From Candidatus Dojkabacteria bacterium (GTDB lineage Bacteria > Patescibacteriota > Dojkabacteria > SC72): a DNA stretch of 28,956 bases. Made by a program: the position numbers and the translations under genes. Of this stretch, positions 1,727-27,117 are shown in pieces. The stretch covers positions 1 through 28,956 of the forward strand of contig JAAZGF010000017.1 of the NCBI GenBank assembly GCA_012511375.1, written 5' to 3'. How positions within the stretch are numbered: position 1 is the stretch's first letter; each line of letters starts with the position of its first letter. Below the pieces are notes generated by a model that was given only the letters and a program-made list of their open reading frames with translations, did no database searches and had not been told where the DNA came from.

Positions 1727-1797
1727 ACGTATATTATAGAGCATATATTAAGCATCTAAAACTTTTTCCAATATTCTGCTAAACTTTAGATAGAAAA

Positions 1798-1818
1798 TAT
1801 AATAGAATCTGCCTATAT
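1798..1818 (+). promoter_or_regulatory. -10 box and leader motif of the prgI operon (TATAAT-AG-AATCTGCCTA-TAT-ATG)
   Basis: TATAAT at 1798-1803 with an overlapping TAGAAT at 1803-1808. The same 10-mer sits at the same offset upstream of the Lon-like gene. Confidence 0.6.
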
Positions 1819-2661
1819 ATGAGACAGCATGCGATTCCTCACAATATATTAGATATAGAGTTTAAAATTTTTACAAAATTTACTCTAAAAGAATTTGCTT
1901 ATCTAGCAATTGGGATTGGTTTTGGAGCATTAATGATTTACTTAACAGCAAGAGGAGACGTTCCTGGTATTATTGGAATCCCTGTTTTTATCTTTTCCTC
2001 TATCTTAGGAATTATTTTAGGACTAGTACCTATCAACGAACAAGATGCAGATGTATTTATTAAAAACTTTATCACTGCTATAACTAATCCTACTCAGAGA
2101 GTTTGGTTAAACAAAGAAATGAATGATAAGAGGTCAAAACCAGAGATAAAACCAACAAAAGAAGGAGAAATAGTACACAAAGACGTTAAGATAAAAAGAA
2201 AGAAAATAATTGGAGCAACCTTACCTTCTCAGAAAAAGGATGATGATATTGCAGATCCCTTAGATGAGAAAAATTTACAAGTAGATCAGGAATTACTTGA
2301 ATCAAATATCAAAACAGTATCAGCAATTACTCCTAACAAGATAATAATAACAGATGAAAACAGGAGTGCTTATCAATTCCAGATAAAGAGTACTGATAAA
2401 TTACCTGGAAATATTAATATTTGGTTATGTACAAAAGAATTTAAACCCGTTCCCAATGTAGTTACATATCTTAAATCTTCCAATGGAACAGTGTTGTATG
2501 CAAATAAAGCTGGAAAGAATGGATACTTTCTTACAAGTAAGTTATGGGATCCTGGAATATATGTGTTAGAATTTGATCACCCTGTATACAAATTCCCTGA
2601 AGTACAGATAGAATTAACAGAGAAGGAGAACAAATTACCTATTAAAATAAGTAGTTTATAG
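1819..2661 (+). CDS. prgI: PrgI-family membrane protein (T4SS VirB3-like) with a C-terminal beta-sandwich domain
   Basis: N-terminus MRQHAIPHNILDIEFKIFTKFTLKEF followed by two TM helices and PINEQDADVFIKNF. The C-terminal domain resembles a carboxypeptidase-regulatory/Ig-like fold. It lies directly upstream of the TraC-like gene and virB4. Confidence 0.8.
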   Translation: MRQHAIPHNILDIEFKIFTKFTLKEFAYLAIGIGFGALMIYLTARGDVPGIIGIPVFIFSSILGIILGLVPINEQDADVFIKNFITAITNPTQRVWLNKEMNDKRSKPEIKPTKEGEIVHKDVKIKRKKIIGATLPSQKKDDDIADPLDEKNLQVDQELLESNIKTVSAITPNKIIITDENRSAYQFQIKSTDKLPGNINIWLCTKEFKPVPNVVTYLKSSNGTVLYANKAGKNGYFLTSKLWDPGIYVLEFDHPVYKFPEVQIELTEKENKLPIKISSL

Positions 2662-2662
2662 A

Positions 2663-3298
2663 ATGGATAAAAAAGCAAGAGCAAGAGCAACAGCATCAAC
2701 TCAAGAGCATCTCTCTGTAAGAGAGGTGATGGATGACTTAATACTTAATAAAAACGGAAGTGTTGCTATGGTAATACAAACATCCTCTATAAACTTTGAT
2801 TTATTAGCAGAGTATGAACAAGATAATAAAATATATGCCTTTGCGGGACTACTTAACTCTTTGAATTTTAGGATTCAAATCCTTATAAGAACACGTAGGA
2901 TTGATATTACTAATTATGTAGATTATCTCAAATCTCAGAAGAATAAGGCGATGAGTGAAGGCTTAAAAAGACAACTAGAAATCTACACTCAATTTATAGG
3001 TACACTCATATCTGAAAATGATGTTCTAGATAAAAGTTTCTTTTTGATAATACCATATAGCCCTGGAGTTCCATTACCTGGAACTAGTATATTGGATGCA
3101 AAGAAAAACAAAGAAGAGAGAGATAAATATAAAGATATGAAAAAAGAACAACTTGTAGAAAAAGCAAAGATGTACCTCTATCCTAAGCGAGATCATCTTC
3201 TCAAGCTATTAGGAAGAATGGGGTTGTTTGGTCATCAATTAACAAACAAAGAGTTAATTTCAGAATTCTATACATTATATAATCCAGAAGAGGAGTAA
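2663..3298 (+). CDS. TraC/TcpE-like VirB4-associated protein (resembles the N-terminal region of conjugative ATPases)
   Basis: STQEHLSVREVMDDLILNKNG...SSINFDLL..EQ...FAGLLNSLNFRIQILIRTRRIDI. It starts 1 nt after the prgI stop and ends 4 nt before virB4. Confidence 0.7.
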   Translation: MDKKARARATASTQEHLSVREVMDDLILNKNGSVAMVIQTSSINFDLLAEYEQDNKIYAFAGLLNSLNFRIQILIRTRRIDITNYVDYLKSQKNKAMSEGLKRQLEIYTQFIGTLISENDVLDKSFFLIIPYSPGVPLPGTSILDAKKNKEERDKYKDMKKEQLVEKAKMYLYPKRDHLLKLLGRMGLFGHQLTNKELISEFYTLYNPEEE

Positions 3299-3302
3299 AA
3301 TC

Positions 3303-5717
3303 ATGAATGAAAGAGATCAAAGTAGAACATATCAAAGTAAAGCCTCAAAGATGTTGGAAGATAGGGCTGAAAAAATTAAATCTCCTGCGGAAAAAACTTC
3401 TGAGTTCCAAGAATTGCTTAAAAAAGATGAAACAAGAAGAGATTCTTTTGATAGAAGATATGACGAACCAAAACCTATTGAAAAAGAAGATAAAAATCCA
3501 ATATTTAAATTGCTGGATAAATTAAGAAAGAATTATGAAAAGAAACAGAAAGATGAAGATGAAAAAGAACCTTCTACAAGAGAGGAAGAAGAAAACAGAG
3601 ATCTAAAAGAGAATCTTCCCACAGATATGTCTATTCAGGACATAATAGCTCCTATTGATCTAGAAGTAGACTTCAATCATCTCCAAATGGGAGATTACTA
3701 TTTTAAAACACTATTCATTAGTGGTTATCCTAGATTTGTAGGACCAAACTGGCTATCACCTATTATCAATTTTGAGCACTCTCTTAGAATTAGTACTTTT
3801 TACTACCCTGTTGAATCAAAAGTTATTTTAGAAAAGCTAAAAAAGAAAATAGGAGAGATGGAAGCTACTCTTTACACACAAATGGAGGAAAGGAAAGTTG
3901 TAGATCCTTCCCTTAAAGTAGCTCTGTCTGATGCTCAACAATTACAAGACTCAATAGCAGAAGGAACAGAAAAGTTTTTCCATTTCTCTATGTATATAAC
4001 CCTATATGCTAATGATAAAGAGGAACTAGAAAGAATAGGAAGAAATGTAACCTCTACCCTAGCTGCTATTAATGTCTCTGCTAAACCCGCTACATTACAA
4101 CAAGAGCAAGGCTTTATTAGTACACAACCATTGGGCTTGGACAATCTTTACATAACACGAAATATGGATACTACTTCTCTTGCAACTACATTTCCGTTTG
4201 TAACATCAGAATTAACAATGGATCATGGAATTATGTATGGTATAAACCTTCATAACAAGAGTTTGGTTATATTCGATAGATTTGATTTAGAAAATGCTAA
4301 TACTGTTATTTTTGCAAAATCTGGTGCTGGAAAAAGCTATTTCGTCAAATTAGAAGCAGTTAGAAGTTTAATGCTTGGAACTGAAATAATAATAATAGAT
4401 CCTGAAAGTGAATATCAAAGTTTATCAAAGGCAGTAAATGGAGCATACATCTCTTTCTCACAGGATAAAGGAAACAAGATGAATCCGTTTGAACTCTCGG
4501 GAGTAACAGATGAAGGAGATGATGAATTAAGAATGAAGTTATTAGCTCTTCAGGGATTCTTCAAAATAATGTTTGATGGAATAACAAACATTGAAGGTTC
4601 TATACTAGATAGAGCTCTAATTTTAACATACAGAGAAAAAGGAATTAACTTTGATCCTAGCACTCAAACAAATCCTCCTCCGATGCTAGAAGATCTTTAC
4701 AAAGTTCTAAAAGGAATGGCAGAGACAGAGGCTCATGCATTGGCCAAGAGACTAGAAAAATATATTATTGGTAGTGGTGCTGGTGTATTCAATGAGGCAA
4801 GTAACTTTGAAATAGTTAATCCATTTACAGTCTTTAGTATTAGAGATTTACAAGAAGAACTGAAACCTATGGCCATGTACCTAATGCTTGATTTTATATG
4901 GACTAGAATTAGAAAAAATAAAAAAAGAAGATTGCTCATAGTAGATGAGGCTTGGTATATGATGCAGTCAGAAGATTCAGCAAAATTTCTTTACTCTATT
5001 GCTAAAAGAGCAAGAAAGTATTACCTAGGCCTCTCTACTATAACACAAGATGTTGCAGACTTTCTTAATACAGATATGGGGAAAGCTATAATTTCAAACT
5101 CCTCTATACAATTACTTATGATGCAAAGTCCAACTGCTGTAGAAAAGCTTCAAGAGGTATTTAAACTCTCTGATGGAGAAAAGAATTTTCTACTTAGCTG
5201 CGAACAAGGACAGGGACTATTCTTTGCAGGAACAAATCATGTTGGTATACATGTGCTCTCTAGTGTCTCAGAACATGAGTTAATAACCTCAGATCCTAGA
5301 GACTTGGAAAGGATGAAGAAGAGAGAAGGAGAAACAGATACAAGAACGATAGAAGAACTCTCGCAAGTTTATGAGACTCCTGCAGAACAGAGAACCGTAC
5401 AAAGAACCGTAAACATAACCAGGCAGGAACAAATAATAGAGGATGCTATTAAAAAGACAGAGGATCGAAGAGGCATCTTACAGCAAGAGAGAAGTCAATA
5501 CCAAAAAGAATTAGAGGAAAGACTTAAACAAAAGGAGGAGGAATTATATCCTGAGAAAATGAACCTTCAAAAAACATATAAAGATCATCTTGAAGAAAGT
5601 ACTCTCTCTGGACAAATAATAAAATCTAGAGAAAATATACAGAAAGGTAGAAAACATTTAACACCACAAGGGACTGTAGAAAGCTATCCCTCAAAAGATA
5701 ATAACCCATATGAATAA
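3303..5717 (+). CDS. virB4: VirB4/TraC-like type IV secretion ATPase
   Basis: Walker A AKSGAGKS, IIIDPESEY, Walker B LLIVDEAWY, KRARKY, TITQDVADF, GQGLFFAG, and RNMDTTSLATTFPF. Confidence 0.92.
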   Translation: MNERDQSRTYQSKASKMLEDRAEKIKSPAEKTSEFQELLKKDETRRDSFDRRYDEPKPIEKEDKNPIFKLLDKLRKNYEKKQKDEDEKEPSTREEEENRDLKENLPTDMSIQDIIAPIDLEVDFNHLQMGDYYFKTLFISGYPRFVGPNWLSPIINFEHSLRISTFYYPVESKVILEKLKKKIGEMEATLYTQMEERKVVDPSLKVALSDAQQLQDSIAEGTEKFFHFSMYITLYANDKEELERIGRNVTSTLAAINVSAKPATLQQEQGFISTQPLGLDNLYITRNMDTTSLATTFPFVTSELTMDHGIMYGINLHNKSLVIFDRFDLENANTVIFAKSGAGKSYFVKLEAVRSLMLGTEIIIIDPESEYQSLSKAVNGAYISFSQDKGNKMNPFELSGVTDEGDDELRMKLLALQGFFKIMFDGITNIEGSILDRALILTYREKGINFDPSTQTNPPPMLEDLYKVLKGMAETEAHALAKRLEKYIIGSGAGVFNEASNFEIVNPFTVFSIRDLQEELKPMAMYLMLDFIWTRIRKNKKRRLLIVDEAWYMMQSEDSAKFLYSIAKRARKYYLGLSTITQDVADFLNTDMGKAIISNSSIQLLMMQSPTAVEKLQEVFKLSDGEKNFLLSCEQGQGLFFAGTNHVGIHVLSSVSEHELITSDPRDLERMKKREGETDTRTIEELSQVYETPAEQRTVQRTVNITRQEQIIEDAIKKTEDRRGILQQERSQYQKELEERLKQKEEELYPEKMNLQKTYKDHLEESTLSGQIIKSRENIQKGRKHLTPQGTVESYPSKDNNPYE

Positions 5718-5931
5718 TAAGCAAAATCTAAATATATCTAACTACCTTGTAACAGAGGCTATTGATCCTAAAACAATCCTTCCTGATAAAGTGAATTCAG
5801 ATTTGGAAGCCTTAAATAAGGCTGAAAGTAAAAGCACATATAAAACAAACATTGCAAGAAGTATAAAAAACCCTAAAGTACAAAGAGCTGTCTCTGCATT
5901 AAAATTAAGCAATCCATTCAAAGGATACTAA
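5710..5931 (+). CDS. Small hypothetical protein (73 aa) coupled to virB4
   Basis: The ATG overlaps the virB4 3' end by 8 nt and the stop overlaps the convergent Lon-like stop. The ORF fills the gap exactly. Confidence 0.55.
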   Translation: MNNKQNLNISNYLVTEAIDPKTILPDKVNSDLEALNKAESKSTYKTNIARSIKNPKVQRAVSALKLSNPFKGY

Positions 5932-7118
5932 CTCAGTGGACCTTGATCAGCAAGAACATACTCTCTCAAATTAGAACTATCTATTACAATTGGAAGTCTT
6001 TCTCCTTCTATTATCTTTCTTGCTGCACTTCTAACTATTGTAGTTATATTTCTCTCCAACTGCCTTATACCTGCATCAAAGCCTACCGGTCTAATAATTA
6101 AGGGCCATACATCTTCCTGTATCTGAATATATTCTGTTGATATGTTTAAATTCTTTAATACTTTAGGAAGGAGATACTGTTTCCCTATAACTTCCTTCTC
6201 CTGATCTGAATAACTCGTAAATCTAATAACTTCAACACGGTCAAGTAGAGCAGCAGATAATCCTCCTAGGTTATTTGCTGTACAAACAAAAAACACATTA
6301 GATAAATCAATAGGATAATCAATATAGTGATCTGTAAAAGCATGATTCTGTTCCGGATCTAATATCTCTAGAAGAGCTGCCATAACATCATTCAAAAGAC
6401 CCGAATTCCCACTAGATTTCTCTATTTCATCAAGAAGTATAACTGGATTCATAGTACCACAGTTAATTAAAGCCTTAACAATCTGCCCTGGTTCTGCATC
6501 TATAGAGTATCTTGGAGTACCTCTTATAGTTCTAACGTCCCCTATCGCTCCCAAAGAGACTCTTGCAAACTTTCTTCCCATTGAAATAGCTATGGACTTT
6601 GCAATAGAAGTTTTTCCAACACCTTGTAAACCAACAAAAAGAAAAACTGGAGCATTCGAAGATGACCCTTTTAATACCCCTATCTCTTGAATTCTGTTAA
6701 TTTCTCCATTAGAAGAAATAGGAACTTGACTAGGAAGGTTTCTACCCCTAACCCCACCCTCGCTTTCTAGCTGCATTGTTGCTAAGTAATCTAGAATTAA
6801 CTCTTTTATCACATCCATCCCATAATGCGTTCCATCCATTATTTTTTTAGCATTACTTATATCCAATCGATCTTCAGATAACACCCCCCAAGGAATTCTT
6901 GTAACCCAATCTATATACTTATTAACATTTTCAAACTCAGCACTGTATGCCCCCATTTGAAACATCCTTTTAAGTCTATTTATACTTCTCATACTTTCTT
7001 CCTTCAAAGCATCTGGAACTCTGGATGAAACAAGCTTGTTTTCGAGCTGTAAAACCTCTTTTAAGCCTTCATCCGTTACTATATTAGTATTGTTTCTATT
7101 TTGATTAGAATAATCCAT
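5928..7118 (-). CDS. lon: Lon-like AAA+ ATPase lacking the N-terminal domain and the Ser-Lys protease domain
   Basis: YIDWVTRIPW, THYGMDVIKELILDYL, Walker A GLQGVGKTS, Walker B ILLDEIEK, ALLEILDPEQNHAFTDHY, DLSNVFFVCTAN, LLDRVEVI, GIRQLER. The protein ends at SNLREYV, where the protease domain would begin. Confidence 0.88.
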   Translation of the reverse strand: MDYSNQNRNNTNIVTDEGLKEVLQLENKLVSSRVPDALKEESMRSINRLKRMFQMGAYSAEFENVNKYIDWVTRIPWGVLSEDRLDISNAKKIMDGTHYGMDVIKELILDYLATMQLESEGGVRGRNLPSQVPISSNGEINRIQEIGVLKGSSSNAPVFLFVGLQGVGKTSIAKSIAISMGRKFARVSLGAIGDVRTIRGTPRYSIDAEPGQIVKALINCGTMNPVILLDEIEKSSGNSGLLNDVMAALLEILDPEQNHAFTDHYIDYPIDLSNVFFVCTANNLGGLSAALLDRVEVIRFTSYSDQEKEVIGKQYLLPKVLKNLNISTEYIQIQEDVWPLIIRPVGFDAGIRQLERNITTIVRSAARKIIEGERLPIVIDSSNLREYVLADQGPLS

Positions 7119-7138
7119 ACTAGGCAGATTTAATTATA
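7119..7138 (-). promoter_or_regulatory. -10 box and leader motif of the Lon-like gene (TATAAT-TA-AATCTGCCTA-GT-ATG)
   Basis: Minus-strand TATAAT at 7133-7138 and AATCTGCCTA at 7121-7130. Confidence 0.6.
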
Positions 7139-7184
7139 TCTAAAGTGTATATTTACAAATTGATTAAGTCAACTATTAAAAGTA

Positions 7185-7213
7185 TTGATATTGTTACTCC
7201 CTCATGATAACCT
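7185..7213 (+). promoter_or_regulatory. Sigma70-type promoter of the surface-protein gene
   Basis: TTGATA (7185-7190)-N17-TAACCT (7208-7213), with an extended TGn. Confidence 0.45.
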
Positions 7214-7245
7214 TAACATAGATATAAAATAAACTGTCCATAAAG

Positions 7246-8520
7246 ATGAAAAAATTATATGTATTTTTCGCTTTTTTGTTTACCTTTTTACTTCCACTTT
7301 CTGCAATGGCAGCTGTAAATATTGCCTTAGATGATACATCTTCTAGCGAAGAATATAGTGTTTCCGTTTCCATTGATACGGGGATCGAAATGCTTGATAC
7401 TCTTGTTCTCCCAATAGAATTTTCTGACAATGTTGTAATCACAGATGTGCTTACAGGTAGTGTAATTTGTAGCAAGTTTGACTTTGTAGAAAATAATAAT
7501 ATTTTAACTATAACTTGTGAATTAGATACCCCATCATCCTTAAATGCTGTTTTAGCAAATATAGAATTTACATCTACTTCTGATGAGTATTCCTTTAAAG
7601 TTTTAGATGATAATTCTAGTTTAGATATAGGAGGTTTAGGTTTAGGGGCAATTACTAATATAGGTTCAACAGAAACTACTACTAACAGAATAGCAACAGA
7701 AGAGATTGATGCTATCCCTATAAATGAAGAAACTGAGGATGATTTTCTTGTAACATCTGACCAACCAGTAGAGGAAACAGCTTCTAGTACAGAAGGAATT
7801 ATGACTTTCCTGCCGTATATTTTAATAGGAGGATCAGTTGTTCTTTTGATTACCATCTTAGCTATTATATTCAGCAAGAAAGGAACATCAAAGAAGTCTG
7901 AATATATTCCTGTCGAAAATCCAACTCCTCAAGACAGTACTGTTCCTGTACAAAATGAAGAAAACACTTTAAAAGACATGGTTAATAATACTGCTACTCC
8001 TATTGAAGAGACACCTATACCTACTCCACCTGTACAAGATACTCCTGCTCCTGTTATGCCTACAATACAAGAGACACCAGCTCCTACTATGCCTCCAATG
8101 GAAGAGATTCCAATAAGTTCTGAACCTCTACAACAAGCACAACCAACAACAGAGGAACAAGATTTAGAGGAGATATTGAGAAGTGAAAATAGTACTCCTG
8201 TAGAACCAATGGGAATGCCTTCAAATACTCCTCCAGTACAACCAATGGATCAACCTGTTATCCATCCTGAAGCAATGCAACCTCAAACAATGGAGACAGT
8301 AGATGTTTCCTCACAACCACAACCATCTCCTGAAGATATGTTGTCTAATAATGTCGCAAGGGAATTAAATCAAATGCAAGATACAGGTAGTGGAATTGAT
8401 TTACAAGGGGGAATGCAAGAACCAGTTGAACCGCAGCCCACACAAGGATTTGATACTCCACAAGGAGGAGAAGTTGACCAACAAGAAGAGAGTATGCCCC
8501 CCATACCACCAACTATGTAG
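7246..8520 (+). CDS. Single-pass surface protein: signal peptide, cohesin-like beta-sandwich, TM helix, Pro/Gln/Thr/Glu-rich disordered tail
   Basis: Signal peptide MKKLYVFFAFLFTFLLPLSAMA, a beta-rich domain (YSVSVSIDTG...LANIEF), TM ILIGGSVVLLITILAIIF followed by KK, then a low-complexity C-terminus. The cohesin fold is inferred. Confidence 0.7.
   Translation: MKKLYVFFAFLFTFLLPLSAMAAVNIALDDTSSSEEYSVSVSIDTGIEMLDTLVLPIEFSDNVVITDVLTGSVICSKFDFVENNNILTITCELDTPSSLNAVLANIEFTSTSDEYSFKVLDDNSSLDIGGLGLGAITNIGSTETTTNRIATEEIDAIPINEETEDDFLVTSDQPVEETASSTEGIMTFLPYILIGGSVVLLITILAIIFSKKGTSKKSEYIPVENPTPQDSTVPVQNEENTLKDMVNNTATPIEETPIPTPPVQDTPAPVMPTIQETPAPTMPPMEEIPISSEPLQQAQPTTEEQDLEEILRSENSTPVEPMGMPSNTPPVQPMDQPVIHPEAMQPQTMETVDVSSQPQPSPEDMLSNNVARELNQMQDTGSGIDLQGGMQEPVEPQPTQGFDTPQGGEVDQQEESMPPIPPTM
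8002..8097 (+). repeat. Imperfect in-frame tandem repeat (30/33/33 bp; IEETPIPTPP / VQDTPAPVMPT / IQETPAPTMPP)
   Basis: gtacaagatactcctgctcctgttatgcctaca (8032-8064) versus atacaagagacaccagctcctactatgcctcca (8065-8097). Confidence 0.6.
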
Positions 8521-14734: not shown

Positions 14735-15196
14735 ATGAGGGACACAGAATTTTTAGAAAATATTCTTTATGATTTATGGGAAAATCATTTTTGTGATGTA
14801 CCCAGACATAATCTTGTTATTATAAAATATGGTAAGTTCTCTAAAAGACAGCTAGGGTCCATTAAAATAGCAAATAGTAAAACAAAAATTAAAAAAATGT
14901 TAAAAGAGAAATGGAATGATCTTTTAGCTCAGGATGATAAAAGTATTACCGTTATTACTATTTCCAGATATTTCCAAAACGAGATTATCCCTGAATTTGT
15001 TCTAAGAGCAGTAGTTGCTCATGAACTTTGTCATTATACTCATGGTTTCAGTTCTCCACTAGAAAAAAGATTTAATAATCCACACCAAGGGAGTGTTGTA
15101 AAGAAAGAACTTAAAAAAAGAGGTCTTTGGGAAGAACAAGAGAAAGCAGATGAGTGGATTGAAAAGCATTGGAGAAGGATAGTATCAGGAAAGTAA
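14735..15196 (+). CDS. SprT-like zinc metallopeptidase-domain protein (HExxH)
   Basis: VVAHELCHYTHG, KRQLGSI, upstream beta-strand ITVITISR, and downstream PHQG. Confidence 0.7.
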   Translation: MRDTEFLENILYDLWENHFCDVPRHNLVIIKYGKFSKRQLGSIKIANSKTKIKKMLKEKWNDLLAQDDKSITVITISRYFQNEIIPEFVLRAVVAHELCHYTHGFSSPLEKRFNNPHQGSVVKKELKKRGLWEEQEKADEWIEKHWRRIVSGK

Positions 15197-15440: not shown

Positions 15441-15983
15441 ATGAACAATACTCATATTGGAGAAAATATTAGGATATACAGAAAAAGGAAGAATATTACA
15501 CAGAGGGAGTTAGGAGACAAGATAGGAAAGACATGGGAAATGGTTTCTAGATACGAAAGAGGTGTTAGTTCTCCTTCTAAACAAATAAATTCTTTAGCTG
15601 ATGCCTTAGATGTAGATATTAAAGACCTCTTTAGGGATCCAGCAGAGAAAGATACAGAAAAACATTATTTTAATAGAGTTCCTCTTTTTACTTACATCCC
15701 TGAAAATGCCGACTTTAAAAAAGAGAGAAGTTTTGTTTACTATACAGCACCTGACTGGATATTAGATATTGATAACAAATGTTTTGTAATAACAACTGAT
15801 TTAGCAACAATTCAAACAGATAGAATTACTAAAGGGAAACTCTTTGTTTCTCCAAATAGTGAATGTTTTAAAGGAGATCTTGTTCTTAAAAAAGAGAATG
15901 AGAAGTTGGTTGCAGAAGAACTAAAAGAGGAAAGAAGAGAAGAAATAGTAGGGAAAATTTTAGCTGAAGAGATAGCTTTTTAA
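15441..15983 (+). CDS. XRE-family HTH regulator with a degenerate S24/LexA-like C-terminal domain
   Basis: IGENIRIYRKRKNITQRELGDKIG...VSRYERG, then RVPLF and GDLVL, but no Ala-Gly cleavage site or GDSM catalytic serine. Confidence 0.85.
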   Translation: MNNTHIGENIRIYRKRKNITQRELGDKIGKTWEMVSRYERGVSSPSKQINSLADALDVDIKDLFRDPAEKDTEKHYFNRVPLFTYIPENADFKKERSFVYYTAPDWILDIDNKCFVITTDLATIQTDRITKGKLFVSPNSECFKGDLVLKKENEKLVAEELKEERREEIVGKILAEEIAF

Positions 15984-18002: not shown

Positions 18003-18029
18003 TTAGCAGATTAATTTAATGATTGCCAA
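18003..18029. promoter_or_regulatory. Variant CIRCE (HrcA operator) at groES
   Basis: TTAGCAGAT-N9-GATTGCCAA versus the consensus TTAGCACTC-N9-GAGTGCTAA. It lies between the -10 box and the ATG, and hrcA is present in the window. Confidence 0.75.
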
Positions 18030-20545: not shown

Positions 20546-21253
20546 GTGGATATTCTAGACGTTTTTTTCCCTAAAAGTTGTACCATATGTAAAAGAAAAG
20601 GGGAATATTTATGTGATAAATGTAAAAAATTGTTTAAAAGAAATTTACCCGAATGTTATCTCTGTAGAAGAATTTCTTCTAATTACAAGACGCACGATAC
20701 TTGTAAAAAGGGTAATTCTCTAAATTATGTTTTTGTTGCTTGGAAATATGACTCCTTCTCATCCAATATTATAAAGAAGTATAAATACAAAAGTGTATAT
20801 ACTGTTTCTGATGTTTTGGTGGAATTTTTAATAGAAAGTCTCTCTAATTCCTCTTTTAAAGATATTATGAAGGATAGTTTAATCACAAATGTCCCTATCT
20901 CATCAGTTAGGTTGCATGATAGAGGTTTTAACCAAACAGAAGAATTTGCAAAAGAAATAGCAAAGTTTTTAAATCTTAGATACTCAGGAGACCTTATAAT
21001 GAGAAAAGTAGAATTTGGACATCAGTCTCTCAGAGATAAAGAAGAAAGAAAAGAAAATTTAGAGAAAGAGTTTTATATTAAAAAAAAGATAGATTTAGAA
21101 AAGGAGAAGAGTATTACTATCGTTGACGATGTACTTACAACAGGAGCAACGCTAGAAGCAATTGTCGATACTATAAGGGAAAGCTACAATACAGACATCG
21201 ATATAAATGCTATATGTATGTTTAGAGGAAGACCTTATTACTCTATAAACTGA
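20546..21253 (+). CDS. comF: ComF-family protein (double zinc ribbon plus phosphoribosyltransferase-like domain)
   Basis: FFPKSCTIC...LCDKC...CYLC, RGFNQ, IVDDVLTTGATL; GTG start. Confidence 0.9.
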   Translation: MDILDVFFPKSCTICKRKGEYLCDKCKKLFKRNLPECYLCRRISSNYKTHDTCKKGNSLNYVFVAWKYDSFSSNIIKKYKYKSVYTVSDVLVEFLIESLSNSSFKDIMKDSLITNVPISSVRLHDRGFNQTEEFAKEIAKFLNLRYSGDLIMRKVEFGHQSLRDKEERKENLEKEFYIKKKIDLEKEKSITIVDDVLTTGATLEAIVDTIRESYNTDIDINAICMFRGRPYYSIN

Positions 21254-23622
21254 GTGCCGTCTTTCTCTAATCCATCTAAACCTAAATCTATTTGGTCATC
21301 TTCTTCATGTTTTGGGATTTCTATAGCCTCTGGTTCTTTTGTAGTATCTCCTGTAAGTTCCCTCTTTGTTGACATGTCATTTAGCTCTGAAGCTATCTCT
21401 TGGTATATTTCTAGTTCTATTAGCCCTTCATCTTCAAGTATCTTTTTTGCTGCTTTAAGATAGGCTTCGTACATATCCATATCTCCCATTTCTTTGTTAA
21501 TATTGGCAACTAATACTATGGACGGGATATGGTAAGGATTTATTGTTAAAACATTGCTTAAAGACTCTAGGGAGCTCTGCATATCTTCTTTCACCAAGAA
21601 TACCTGTGCTCTATAGAAGTGTAGGTTATAATTAATAGGATTTAACTGTAGAGCATTCTCTATTGATGTCAGAACTTCTCCTTCGTTATCAGATATACCA
21701 AGCTCTATCAAAAGCATATATAAACTCGTATTTACATCTCTATTAGCATAAATATATGGTGCTGCTGTTATACTTTTTTTACTTAATTCCAAAGTATTAT
21801 TTTTCCAAAATATTATATCGCTTAACATAGTATCACTCTCTTCTGTTTCTGGATCTCCTTCTGTTTTCTGTATTAATTCACTGTATGCCTCAACCTCCAA
21901 AACTAACCTTTCTGCATATGCTAAAGATAGTTTTCTAAGGAACAATGGATTGTTTTTATCATAATCAACACTCTTTGAGCGAAGCTCCATTAACTTTTGT
22001 ACAATTGCTGCTCTTTCCTCTTCTGTAGGATCCTGCTCCTGATATCTTAATGATTCTTCTGTTGTATAAGCTTCTGCTTTTAGAGTATATATACTTGCGA
22101 TACCCTTTGAAAACCAGAATGTCGTCAATCCTCCAAAAACAATTACTGCAACAACACTTAACAAAATACTAAGGTTAGAAACATAGGGTTTTGTGCTATT
22201 CCTAACGCCTAAATCTACTGTCCAAAACTTAATTATATACCTATCATCACTATCTTTATTCAACAAATTCTTGATTACAGCTTTTAGTGATATTAAAAGA
22301 AGAAGTGTGAAAAGAATAATGGTTGAATATGTTACAAAGAGAGAAGAAAGATATATCAACACTATAGCCATATTAACTACAACTAACCTCCAGTTATTAA
22401 CCGCATCTTTACTTAATTTAATCTGTTTTAAATCATTCCAAAAAGTTCTTCCAATCAAATAGCCAAAGAACAACCAAATCAGGAACCACACAAGACCTCC
22501 ATTAGTCAATAGGGTGAATATTTCCGCTCCTGCTTTATAGAATGTTATATCGTTAAATGTTAATAGACTTACATCCATGGGCCTGTACAGATTGTATGCT
22601 ATTGAAAATGTATCTATCCCAAGTCCTACAATGGCTCTACCAAAAGAGGAAACCAAAACAGAAGATGAGACTATCCAAGAAATCTGACTTCCCAAATTTA
22701 TCTCTGTCAAAAGATTAAAATTTTCTGGAAGAATATTTTCTCTAACCGTTGGAATCTGAAGAAGAGAGAATGGTATTAAGATTAGTAATGCTGTAACAAG
22801 GCAGAATATTAAAATCTCTTTTGATGTTCCTTTCTCTAAGCTAACTTTCTTAGTAAGGAAAACAGAGAACAAGATTAAAAGAGCTATAGATAGTAATACT
22901 ATGTATAAACCTTGACTGAGAGAGAAGATAACAATATTAAATATTATTAGAATACCTGAGATAGCTGCAAATACTAATTGTCCTACTTTCTCTTTCTTAA
23001 TAAAATATTCTCCTATCAAACTAACACAGAGAAACAGATTCACAAAATTGAGAATGAGATGAATTCCTGCTGACCTGATTAAAGGAACTCCCCCTAAGTA
23101 CAAAGATTTGTATATAGGTATGAAACTCCAAATATTTACACCGAAAAAGGAAATTGCACTTAAAATATTATTGATAAGAAGCCCTGCTGCAAAAGAAAAT
23201 ATTACATATTTTAAATCTCGTTCTGTTTCTAAAAACGTCCTAGAACTTATTGTTACCAACAAAATGGAAAGAAATGATACAAGCCCACCACCCAATCTAG
23301 CATCTACTCCCCATAAACTTGTATTTATATCTACAGAAAAGATAGTAGAGAGAAGCATAGCAAATAACAAAAGGAAGAGCCCTACATCTAAAGCACTCTT
23401 TAAAATATTTGTTTTTCCTTCCCATATCAATTTCAAAAACTCTATCGCTGTTATTACTGTTGCAAAGACTAAGATGAGTATAGACATACTCCTTTCAGTC
23501 CAGTCCCAAGGAAAGGGGAATATTGCAAGAGGGAGAAGAAATAGTAAAGCCCTAAAGAGGTAATTTTGCACTTTAGAAAAGGTTAGTGCTCCTCTTTGAT
23601 TTTGAATTTGATCTTGCAACAT
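21238..23622 (-). CDS. Polytopic O-antigen-ligase-like membrane protein with C-terminal TPR repeats
   Basis: About 13 TM helices, GLGIDTFSIAY periplasmic-loop motif, and TPR-like C-terminal helices (NALQLNPINYNLHF, NVLTINPYHIPS). Confidence 0.7.
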   Translation of the reverse strand: MLQDQIQNQRGALTFSKVQNYLFRALLFLLPLAIFPFPWDWTERSMSILILVFATVITAIEFLKLIWEGKTNILKSALDVGLFLLLFAMLLSTIFSVDINTSLWGVDARLGGGLVSFLSILLVTISSRTFLETERDLKYVIFSFAAGLLINNILSAISFFGVNIWSFIPIYKSLYLGGVPLIRSAGIHLILNFVNLFLCVSLIGEYFIKKEKVGQLVFAAISGILIIFNIVIFSLSQGLYIVLLSIALLILFSVFLTKKVSLEKGTSKEILIFCLVTALLILIPFSLLQIPTVRENILPENFNLLTEINLGSQISWIVSSSVLVSSFGRAIVGLGIDTFSIAYNLYRPMDVSLLTFNDITFYKAGAEIFTLLTNGGLVWFLIWLFFGYLIGRTFWNDLKQIKLSKDAVNNWRLVVVNMAIVLIYLSSLFVTYSTIILFTLLLLISLKAVIKNLLNKDSDDRYIIKFWTVDLGVRNSTKPYVSNLSILLSVVAVIVFGGLTTFWFSKGIASIYTLKAEAYTTEESLRYQEQDPTEEERAAIVQKLMELRSKSVDYDKNNPLFLRKLSLAYAERLVLEVEAYSELIQKTEGDPETEESDTMLSDIIFWKNNTLELSKKSITAAPYIYANRDVNTSLYMLLIELGISDNEGEVLTSIENALQLNPINYNLHFYRAQVFLVKEDMQSSLESLSNVLTINPYHIPSIVLVANINKEMGDMDMYEAYLKAAKKILEDEGLIELEIYQEIASELNDMSTKRELTGDTTKEPEAIEIPKHEEDDQIDLGLDGLEKDGTQFIE

Positions 23623-23663
23623 TAGTGGCAGTTATAAAATATTAGTCGAATAAATACTAACAT

Positions 23664-26331: not shown

Positions 26332-27060
26332 TTATCTCCATCCCAACATAGATTTCTCTAATGCGCTTTTTACTTCTTTTAATGCAGAAAGTACTTTTGA
26401 ATATTCCATTCTTTTGGTCCCAATAACTCCTACATATGTTTTTCTTTCATCCCAAAAAGGAACATTAACAAAAGCTAATGCACAATTGGCCAAATTATCT
26501 ATTCCTGATTCCCCCCCTATTAATAGGGAAACTCCTGAACCAGAATACTGTTCTACCAAATCCCTCAGGAATGTATCATCTTCCAAGATATTAACTACTG
26601 TTCTCGTTCTCTCTACATTATCTACAAACTCTTCACACTTAAGTAAATTGGATAACCCATATGATCTTACATCTTCATCCAACACCATAAATGCTAAAGT
26701 TGATGTTTCTTTTGCCATAATTCTAAGAATTGCTTTGATTACTGTTTCTTTTGAAAACCTTTCTCTAAAAATCTCCTGCCTAATCTCTACAGATACTAGT
26801 GGGTTTAACCCGTTATCATCTATGAACTTAGAAACATACAATCTAAGTGCTTGGTCCGTAGGAAACCTTCCAGAAGATATATGGCTTTTCTCTAAAAGAC
26901 CTAATTGCATTAATTTAACCATCTCGTTTCTAATAGTGGCTGAACTTACACCAAGATCATATTTTTCTAAAAGAGATAGTGAACCAACTTCACATGCTTC
27001 TTCCATAAACTCATTTATAACGGCAAGAAGTATTTCTTTTTGTCTTTCTGTTAAATCCAT
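26332..27060 (-). CDS. hrcA: Heat-inducible transcription repressor HrcA (compact, 242 aa)
   Basis: LTERQKEIL, VSSATIRNEMVKL..LGLLEKSHISSGRFPTD, VGVIGTKRMEY. Confidence 0.93.
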   Translation of the reverse strand: MDLTERQKEILLAVINEFMEEACEVGSLSLLEKYDLGVSSATIRNEMVKLMQLGLLEKSHISSGRFPTDQALRLYVSKFIDDNGLNPLVSVEIRQEIFRERFSKETVIKAILRIMAKETSTLAFMVLDEDVRSYGLSNLLKCEEFVDNVERTRTVVNILEDDTFLRDLVEQYSGSGVSLLIGGESGIDNLANCALAFVNVPFWDERKTYVGVIGTKRMEYSKVLSALKEVKSALEKSMLGWR

Positions 27061-27061
27061 A

Positions 27062-27088
27062 TTAGCAAATCTAAAGGTTAACTGCTAG
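27062..27088. promoter_or_regulatory. Variant CIRCE at the hrcA start
   Basis: TTAGCAAAT-N9-AACTGCTAG, 1 nt from the ATG and directly downstream of the -10 box. Confidence 0.75.
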
Positions 27089-27117
27089 AGTATAAAGCAA
27101 GCAAGTATCTCTGTCAA
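27089..27117 (-). promoter_or_regulatory. hrcA-grpE-dnaK sigma70 promoter
   Basis: TTGACA (27112-27117)-N17-TATACT (27089-27094). Confidence 0.85.

Follow-up and report, generated by a model that had tools for sequence, protein, structure and literature searches.

A start-codon-adjacent CTGCC word shared by a T4SS-like operon, a Lon-type AAA+ gene and further genes of Dojkabacteria

Two convergent units and their shared leader words

We analysed a 28,956-nt stretch of DNA from a Candidatus Dojkabacteria genome (hereafter the window; all positions are those of the whole stretch), in which two convergent transcription units start beside the same 10-nt word, AATCTGCCTA. The first, on the plus strand, is an operon resembling a type IV secretion system (T4SS; 1819–5931) that is headed by a PrgI-like gene (1819–2661) and continues with a 211-aa open reading frame (ORF; 2663–3298), a VirB4-type ATPase (3303–5717) and a 73-aa ORF (5710–5931). 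The second, on the minus strand, encodes a Lon-type AAA+ ATPase of 396 aa (5928–7118; identified, like PrgI and VirB4, with Pfam/NCBIfam models), which matches positions 255–567 of the Lon model, that is, the ATPase module without the protease domain. The window's own genome (G000; G002, G013 and G014 below are relatives) amounts to 588 kb at 34% G+C in 115 contigs, with ~93% completeness and 3.5% contamination, and DNA near-identical to the window is found in digester, wastewater and sludge metagenomes.

The two leaders can be read side by side. On the plus strand a further shared word, ACTTTAGATA (1783–1792), is followed by gaaaa, TATAAT (1798–1803), ag, AATCTGCCTA (1806–1815, core CTGCC at 1809–1813), tat and the PrgI-like ATG at 1819, placing the end of AATCTGCCTA 3 nt 5' of the start codon. 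On the minus strand ACTTTAGATA (7146–7137) overlaps TATAAT (7138–7133), which is followed by ta, AATCTGCCTA (7130–7121, core 7127–7123), gt and the AAA+ ATG at 7118, a distance of 2 nt. A single 7-nt indel suffices to align the two. An initial annotation of this DNA had pointed out both shared words; the identical AATCTGCCTA adjoining both starts is confirmed, and its core is kept before the orthologues of both genes in the genus, while ACTTTAGATA is indeed present before both units but lies at 1783–1792 on the plus strand rather than at 1784–1793. The number of copies of AATCTGCCTA is by itself unremarkable (three exact copies in G000 against ~1.3 expected from base composition, the third away from any start codon; four window matches with one mismatch against 3.3 expected), and it is the placement at real starts together with conservation that raises the pair above chance. 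The two words occur together in G000 only at the PrgI and AAA sites.

Inverted copies of a word on either side of a gene module could, as terminal inverted repeats, mark the ends of a T4SS cassette of 5.3 kb that is mobile or invertible, and the arms here do flank the module, with a length of 19 nt and 89% complementarity. Such arms are short, however, and the same motif stands before many unlinked genes. Among 61 related genomes, orthologues of the Lon-AAA gene were found in 58 and of the PrgI-like gene in 57, mostly on the same contig and in the same convergent layout, and we therefore regard the module as core rather than mobile; the gene order of the operon is kept across the class, as is synteny with the neighbouring genes, which also holds in G002. 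A Pfam scan of the ~30 window ORFs, including those within 1819–7118, returned no recombinase. Mobile-element repeats were accordingly rejected on synteny, and we consider this origin barely credible.

Conserved promoters upstream of the word

The TATAAT beside each copy of AATCTGCCTA had been taken as the -10 box of the adjoining gene. Comparison of orthologues does not bear this out, and places the conserved promoters further upstream. Before PrgI, TGCTAAACT at 1777–1785 (plus strand) provides an extended -10 box, TGnTAAACT, with a predicted start of transcription at ~1792 and a leader of ~27 nt; before the AAA gene, TTGACT (7172–7167)-17-TACACT (7149–7144), spanning 7144–7172 on the minus strand and also returned by a promoter scan, predicts a start at ~7137 and a leader of ~19 nt. 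These start sites near 1792 and 7137 come from prediction rather than mapping. The plus-strand TATAAT (1798–1803) is not conserved, orthologues mostly having TAGTAA, and its minus-strand counterpart (7133–7138) is kept only loosely, as an A/T-rich stretch; TAGTAA, TGTAAT, CAAAAT and other sequences take the place of TATAAT, whereas TGnTAAACT and TTGACT-17-TACACT stay. The conserved element TTCTGGTAAACT is retained in 28 of 30 orthologous PrgI loci, and TTGACTTAAT ... ATACACTTTA before the AAA gene is kept across the genus and in four other genera. With these promoters in place, ACTTTAGATA at the operon begins with the final three bases of the -10 box and runs on to the predicted start site, and has the same make-up at the AAA promoter, where it also overlaps TATAAT; TA[A/C]ACTTTA is kept before orthologues, but the GATA tail is not kept before PrgI, where ACTTTA is the only part of ACTTTAGATA that is conserved.

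RNA contigs agree with this arrangement. In four metatranscriptomes of low depth, contigs covering 1768–2204 and 6574–7169 run through both motifs and both TATAAT boxes into the ORFs, from which we conclude that the motifs are transcribed as part of the leader. No RNA contig from the same four metatranscriptomes covered 1300–1767, and no pile-up of RNA 5' ends was seen among these low-depth, unstranded contigs, which do not give exact 5' ends. A TATAAT in an A/T-rich leader, then, need not be a promoter.

These data also bear on the notion that the motif is itself part of a second promoter close to the ATG (a -10, discriminator or start-site motif), with the mRNA beginning in or just after CTGCC. 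Leaderless promoters are the rule in G000, TATAAT stands 5 nt before CTGCC at both window sites, and a T at -6 and an A at -12 relative to CTGCC are mildly enriched. Yet most sites have no T-A-n-n-n-T hexamer at the place required, the RNA contigs reach upstream of the motif, and, as described below, some copies of the motif lie within ORFs, downstream of leaderless-type promoters, so that a promoter role of this kind seems to us quite improbable.

The core of the word is conserved as well. Before AAA orthologues an exact CTGCC is present in 10 of 13 loci of the genus (the other three have CTGTC, CTGCT or CTGTCC) and in several other genera; before PrgI orthologues a CTGCC-type core is present in 12 of 13 loci and in three further genera. 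The genus consensus for AAA runs TTGACTTAAT, ~10 nt, ATATACACTTTAGA, ~7 nt, TTAAATCTGCCT, 3–4 nt, ATG, and that for PrgI runs AATATTCTGGTAAACTTTA, ~20 nt, AAAATCTGCCTATAT, ATG. Among the genera of one family the PrgI and AAA genes alternate between near-leaderless and leadered forms, and the leadered forms are those with CTGCC before the ATG: in distant genera TTCTGGTAAACT lies only 9–11 nt from the PrgI ATG and CTGCC is absent, and some leaderless AAA forms carry ACTGCC as codons 4–6.

Two further conserved words were seen upstream of these promoters. One, CATCTAAAACTTT (window 1757–1763), lies ~23 nt upstream of TGnTAAACT and, as a second word before PrgI, is conserved in roughly half the genus; the RNA contig that starts at 1768 begins just downstream of it, and there may be an additional upstream PrgI promoter. 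The other, AATATCAATAG (7182–7192), lies ~55 nt upstream of the AAA start and is conserved across the genus; on the opposite strand it reads TATTGATATT, which faces the divergent 424-aa gene (7246–8520) and is probably the -10 region of that gene.

A start-anchored word before and inside reading frames

The same core marks many other starts. Taking the longest ATG ORFs of at least 80 aa as genes (521 ORFs in G000), the most enriched 5-mers at -20 to -1 are parts of TATAAT, followed by CTGCC, the sole start-enriched 5-mer that is not purely A/T. CTGCC piles up at -11 to -6 before 13 G000 genes, as wAA(T)CTGCC 0–6 nt 5' of the ATG, giving the consensus wAA(T)CTGCCy, 0–5 nt, ATG. These genes encode PilN-like and PilB proteins, pyruvate kinase, RNase J, a transglutaminase-like protein of 617 aa, phosphoglycerate mutase, an ABC ATPase, several membrane proteins and the product of a 794-aa ORF (21238–23622), in addition to the PrgI-like and AAA proteins. 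The 794-aa ORF supplies the third instance in the window, ATAACTGCC-acta-ATG (23627–23631, minus strand), and its G002 orthologue has CTGCC at the same offset, -9; a degenerate instance, AAACTGTCC (7231–7239, plus strand), lies 6 nt before the ATG of ORF 7246–8520, the G002 orthologue of which has AAACTGCC. A logo of 29 sites shows AA/T-CTGCC only, set in G/C-poor flanks, with neither a dyad nor a second conserved block.

The bias is positional and strand-specific. When the upstream regions of G000 and G002 are pooled (1205 in all), CTGCC has 30 occurrences in -14 to -1 against 23 times in the longer interval -60 to -15 (5.4-fold per position, p = 2e-9), whereas its reverse complement GGCAG is found 3 and 14 times, respectively. 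Across five relatives AWCTGCC-N1-6-ATG has 92 matches against 23 for the reversed control. The motif may lie anywhere from 8 to 26 nt from a conserved -10 box but stays within 0–6 nt of the AUG, and hence the motif is anchored to the AUG and not to the -10 box.

This geometry has to be set against the possibility that the word is a DNA operator, at which a transcription factor just past the start site blocks or pauses RNA polymerase. The motif does lie at ~+3 to +20 from predicted start sites, in leadered and leaderless genes alike, and the gene set resembles a regulon. An operator would nevertheless be a peculiar one, in that only 7–8 bp are conserved, without dyad, direct repeat or second block; strand specificity is strict; the leader invariably has the motif at its 3' end, beside the AUG, whatever the -10 distance; and one instance falls within an 18-nt gap between co-directional genes. 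A reader of the non-template strand is also missing from the obvious family, there being a single NusG and no RfaH-like paralogue (one PF02357, NusG-family, match each in G000, G002 and G014), and an RfaH/ops-like element was rejected on these grounds. We judge an operator unlikely.

The wide distribution weighs against a private operator following TATAAT that would co-regulate only the two convergent units through an XRE-family protein (15441–15983) or through HrcA at half of a CIRCE (controlling inverted repeat of chaperone expression) element. In its favour, AATCTGCCTA and ACTTTAGATA co-occur only at these two G000 sites, HrcA is encoded in the window, and the right arm before groES reads ATCTGCTAA. 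The CIRCE variant itself is real, as the initial annotation had remarked: the dyad TTGGCAATC-N9-ATCTGCTAA (18003–18029, minus strand) precedes groES-groEL (17997–16047, minus strand), and TTGACA-17-TATACT followed by TAGCA-N15-TGCTA (27063–27117, with the dyad at 27087–27063, minus strand) precedes hrcA, the first gene of hrcA-grpE-dnaK (27060–23827, minus strand). Both are kept in G002 and share the form T[A/G]GCA-N15-TGCTA, a lineage-specific CIRCE variant; the hrcA gene (26332–27060, minus strand; PF01628, PF03444, TIGR00331) is short, at 242 aa.

The resemblance of AATCTGCCTA to the groES right arm and the absence of a left arm at N9 spacing both stand, but the PrgI and AAA sites are not members of the CIRCE set. 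No conserved left arm was found before either gene (the TTAGA words seen 14 and 11 nt from TGCC are not retained by orthologues), the 7-nt indel between the two sites falls in exactly that region, and a half-CIRCE identity is ruled out on geometry and conservation. The genes that carry the motif belong to pilus, secretion, glycolysis, RNase J and envelope functions and not to the chaperones. Neither TATAAT nor the GATA tail is conserved, G013, the closest relative, retains the motif before AAA but no longer has it before PrgI, and the core stands before at least 13 unrelated G000 genes and their orthologues. Nothing ties either the XRE protein or HrcA to the motif, and a private operator is in our estimation very unlikely. 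Instead, AATCTGCCTA looks like a local, extended copy of a lineage-wide signal, AA(T)CTGCC, rather than a private switch of the T4SS module. The proposal that one factor co-regulates the two units thus survives in part: there is a conserved, functional cis element and co-regulation is still the best reading, but it is not confined to them, and the spread over unrelated genes comes with conservation before the orthologues of those genes.

That conservation is gene-specific. G000 and G002 share 388 reciprocal-best pairs, of which 10 have the motif in both members, none in G000 only and 7 in G002 only, where ~0.4 shared pairs would be expected (Fisher p = 1e-15); some of the seven are one-base variants in G000, for example TTGCC, or CTGTCC before ORF 7246. 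In the shared pairs the offsets are mostly identical although the surrounding leader has diverged. Before pilB the motif immediately precedes an ATG, GTG or TTG start in 27 of 30 loci, representing ~20 genera.

A second class of sites lies downstream of the start codon. CTGCC is found at +5 to +14 inside ORFs 16 times against ~4 expected, and the genes concerned have a -10 box 6–7 nt before the ATG, as is typical of leaderless genes. The clearest case is the second T2SSE ATPase, encoded directly after pilB, in which ATGGATnnnAATACTGCC is present in 24 of 26 loci and is invariably read as Thr ACT and Ala GCC, despite GCC making up just 9% of Ala codons and ACTGCC 4.6% of Thr-Ala dicodons; neighbouring synonymous sites vary. 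The motif inside this ORF is thus under constraint at the nucleotide level, preserved by rare synonymous codons. AAA orthologues of four distant genera have TGATATATT-N6-7-ATGGATnnnACTGCC, the same in-ORF arrangement as the second T2SSE ATPase, and in a PPDK-like gene the G000 copy of the motif is in-ORF and the G002 copy precedes the start codon. Together the two classes cover type IV pilus genes (PilB, the second ATPase, PilM/FtsA-like, PilN-like), the PrgI-VirB4 operon, Lon-AAA, envelope genes, RNase J and, among glycolytic genes, the phosphoenolpyruvate (PEP)-pyruvate node (pyk, gpmI and the PPDK-like gene).

Some instances have additional features. At C3:1740–1770 and C21:1748–1778 of G000, before a 151/156-aa ORF, the motif forms the 3' arm of a perfect 9-bp hairpin, AAGGCAGAT-N6-ATCTGCCTT, followed by TCTTT and ATG; this hairpin could be a cis-encoded anti-motif that masks the element, or could act as a terminator, and in the likely G002 orthologue the motif seems to be present but the 5' arm of the hairpin missing. 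Contig C75 of G000 is visibly G+C-rich (e.g. ...ccgcgcagattgaaaccggtgtgattaacg...) against the 34% of the genome, and is probably contamination of the bin. In a sample of the phylum, AACTGCC-N1-5-ATG compared with its reversed control gave 41 against 8 in family f1 and near 1:1 in most genomes; several Patescibacteria families outside the class had an excess of 5:1 or more, for example G112 (25:4), G083 (11:0), G099 (12:1), G082 (12:2) and G165 (14:2), such that the signal may extend beyond Dojkabacteria or may have had more than one origin.

Translation setting, candidate readings and known systems

The motif occurs in a genome with few Shine-Dalgarno (SD) sites. SD-like 4-mers precede only 44 of 491 G000 starts, and -10-like (TATAAT-like) hexamers peak sharply at -13/-12, with TAnnnT there in 99 of the 491 upstream regions; because of this peak, leaderless mRNAs seem to be the commonest single mode in G000, judging from sequence, about a fifth of genes having a -10-type hexamer 6–7 nt before the ATG (window examples of this setting are the starts at 14735, 15441, 25749 and 28010).

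In such a setting CUGCC might substitute for the SD on leadered mRNAs that have none, with the ribosome contacting it directly through rRNA or a ribosomal protein. The position fits, at -13 to -5 where an SD would be, and E. coli ribosomes can be made to initiate in vitro by C-rich sequences before the AUG (Barendt et al. 2012, PMC3310771). The 16S rRNA gives this idea little purchase, however (the G000 assembly has no 16S, and relatives G002 and G014 were used): the 3' tail is a canonical anti-SD, ...GCGGCUGAAUUACCUCCUUU / ...CUGCGGCUGAAUUACCUCCUUU, devoid of GGCAG, and its best match to CUGCC contains a central U-U mismatch. The only GGCAG in the G002 16S is the universal GGAGGCAGCAG near position 371, which we take to lie away from the mRNA exit in the 30S structure. 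Pairing of the motif with 16S rRNA was rejected for want of an accessible GGCAG beside this canonical tail. A codon-constrained motif 4–18 nt downstream of the AUG would, moreover, be beyond the reach of an upstream docking contact, and only ~3–5% of genes carry the word, leaving a general SD substitute doubtful. As a separate matter, the loop and 3' strand of helix 45 at the 16S 3' end of G002 and G014, GGAAUCUGCGG (AAUCUGCGG), share AAUCUGC with the motif; the likeness is in the same sense, and helix 45 therefore cannot pair with the motif. The likeness may be fortuitous, or the motif may mimic a site to which a helix-45-binding protein binds.

We favour a reading in which AA(U)CUGCC is a single-stranded RNA element in the ribosome-docking window that is read by a trans-acting factor and so defines a regulon, since the AUG-anchored window is where a bound protein or small RNA controls ribosome access; from the sequence patterns described we would give it a probability of about 0.5, action as RNA and a dedicated reader being the parts that we infer. 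In a conserved set of mRNAs the element would fall between about -13 and +18 relative to the AUG. A minority of genes would have short A/U-rich leaders of ~8–27 nt that end in CUGCC 0–6 nt before the AUG, while others would be leaderless with the same word 4–18 nt inside the ORF. A trans-acting factor would bind the single-stranded word and set the rate of translation initiation on all of these mRNAs jointly, and would thereby couple the PrgI-VirB4 operon and Lon-AAA with type IV pilus, envelope, RNase J and lower-glycolysis genes. The factor would more likely be a protein, for example KH-domain KhpA/KhpB-like, than the alternative, a small RNA with a GGCAG seed. G000 encodes KhpA/KhpB-like KH proteins at C94:4201–4428 and C55:7596–7772, as candidates only, and a search of the genome returned no cold-shock-domain protein.

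Several points weigh against this RNA-level reading. No trans factor emerged, and a crude search (all non-coding GGCAG sites; ORF-based intergenic regions of G000 and G002, blastn) found no conserved intergenic GGCAG RNA; the two GGCAG/CTGCC hairpins, that at C3/C21 of G000 and another at C2:206711 of G002, are local structures. In predicted folds the motif is no more unpaired (0.52) than control positions (0.51). Gene calls are crude, start sites are predicted, and the RNA evidence consists of low-depth unstranded contigs. Placement within ~20 nt of the mRNA 5' end also fits a DNA or early-transcription element, and the C-to-T variants (CTGTC, CTGCT, TTGCC), which would keep G-U pairing, are at the same time the commonest mutation of an A/T-rich genome.

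A bolder form of the RNA reading, possible but speculative, is that in Dojkabacteria, and possibly in other Patescibacteria, AA(U)CUGCC serves as a dedicated initiation code, effective before or after the AUG, which has as its reader either a lineage-specific factor or a specialised state of the ribosome and switches a fixed set of mRNAs (pili, the T4SS-like machine, envelope, the PEP-pyruvate node) on or off together. If true, this would be a second route of mRNA selection, independent of SD and leader, in bacteria whose default is leaderless.

To our knowledge, Patescibacteria (the candidate phyla radiation, CPR) cannot be grown alone and their gene control is almost wholly unknown. The motif offers a testable handle on it, as a 7–8-base word by which the same few dozen genes are marked in many genera, among them those for pili, the T4SS-like machine and the last steps of glycolysis; pili and the T4SS-like machine are thought to mediate host contact and DNA uptake. 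Should the word be read as RNA, it would show how an SD-poor, mostly leaderless genome singles out a regulon for translational control. It is also of practical use for the placement of start codons (including the GTG and TTG starts of pilB) and for regulon prediction in metagenome-assembled genomes. Full-text literature searches found no published description of a CUGCC motif or of Dojkabacteria translation signals, and the start-adjacent, lineage-wide CUGCC signal looks like an undescribed gene-control signal; new here are the in-ORF class of sites, the codon-level constraint, the orthologue-pair statistics, the corrected promoters and the separation from CIRCE.

Comparison with known systems brings out what is particular to the motif. 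Like the SD it is a short, strand-specific word of purine- or pyrimidine-biased composition that is anchored to the AUG from a few bases upstream; unlike the SD it is not complementary to the 16S 3' tail of relatives, it occurs in a few per cent of genes only, its spacing of 0–6 nt is shorter than the SD optimum (5–10 nt), and it has a second class of sites at +4 to +18 inside ORFs. Like the C-rich sequences selected in vitro (PMC3310771), it places C-containing words immediately 5' of the AUG and does not depend on an SD, but those are long tracts of broad specificity for which pairing with G-rich rRNA was proposed, whereas the motif is one fixed pentamer in an A/U-rich context that is also found inside ORFs. 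CIRCE (TTAGCACTC-N9-GAGTGCTAA) comes close in that AATCTGCCTA resembles the groES right arm, sits in a leader and shares the window with the gene for HrcA; the motif differs in having no left arm, no fixed N9/N15 geometry and an extra C, and in its non-chaperone targets.

The ops element, recognized by RfaH, a specialised NusG paralogue, is likewise short and strand-specific, and stands in the leaders of SD-poor operons that encode pili, conjugation functions and surface structures; its sequence is unrelated, and the motif is anchored to the AUG and not to a pause site. Translational regulators provide a further parallel, namely the GGA sites of CsrA/RsmA and those seed matches of small RNAs that lie from about -20 to the fifth codon of their targets. 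As with the motif, these are 5–8-nt single-stranded words over the docking window, on either side of the AUG, that mark mixed but conserved regulons; they differ from it in sequence, and no small RNA complementary to the motif was found in our crude G000/G002 search.

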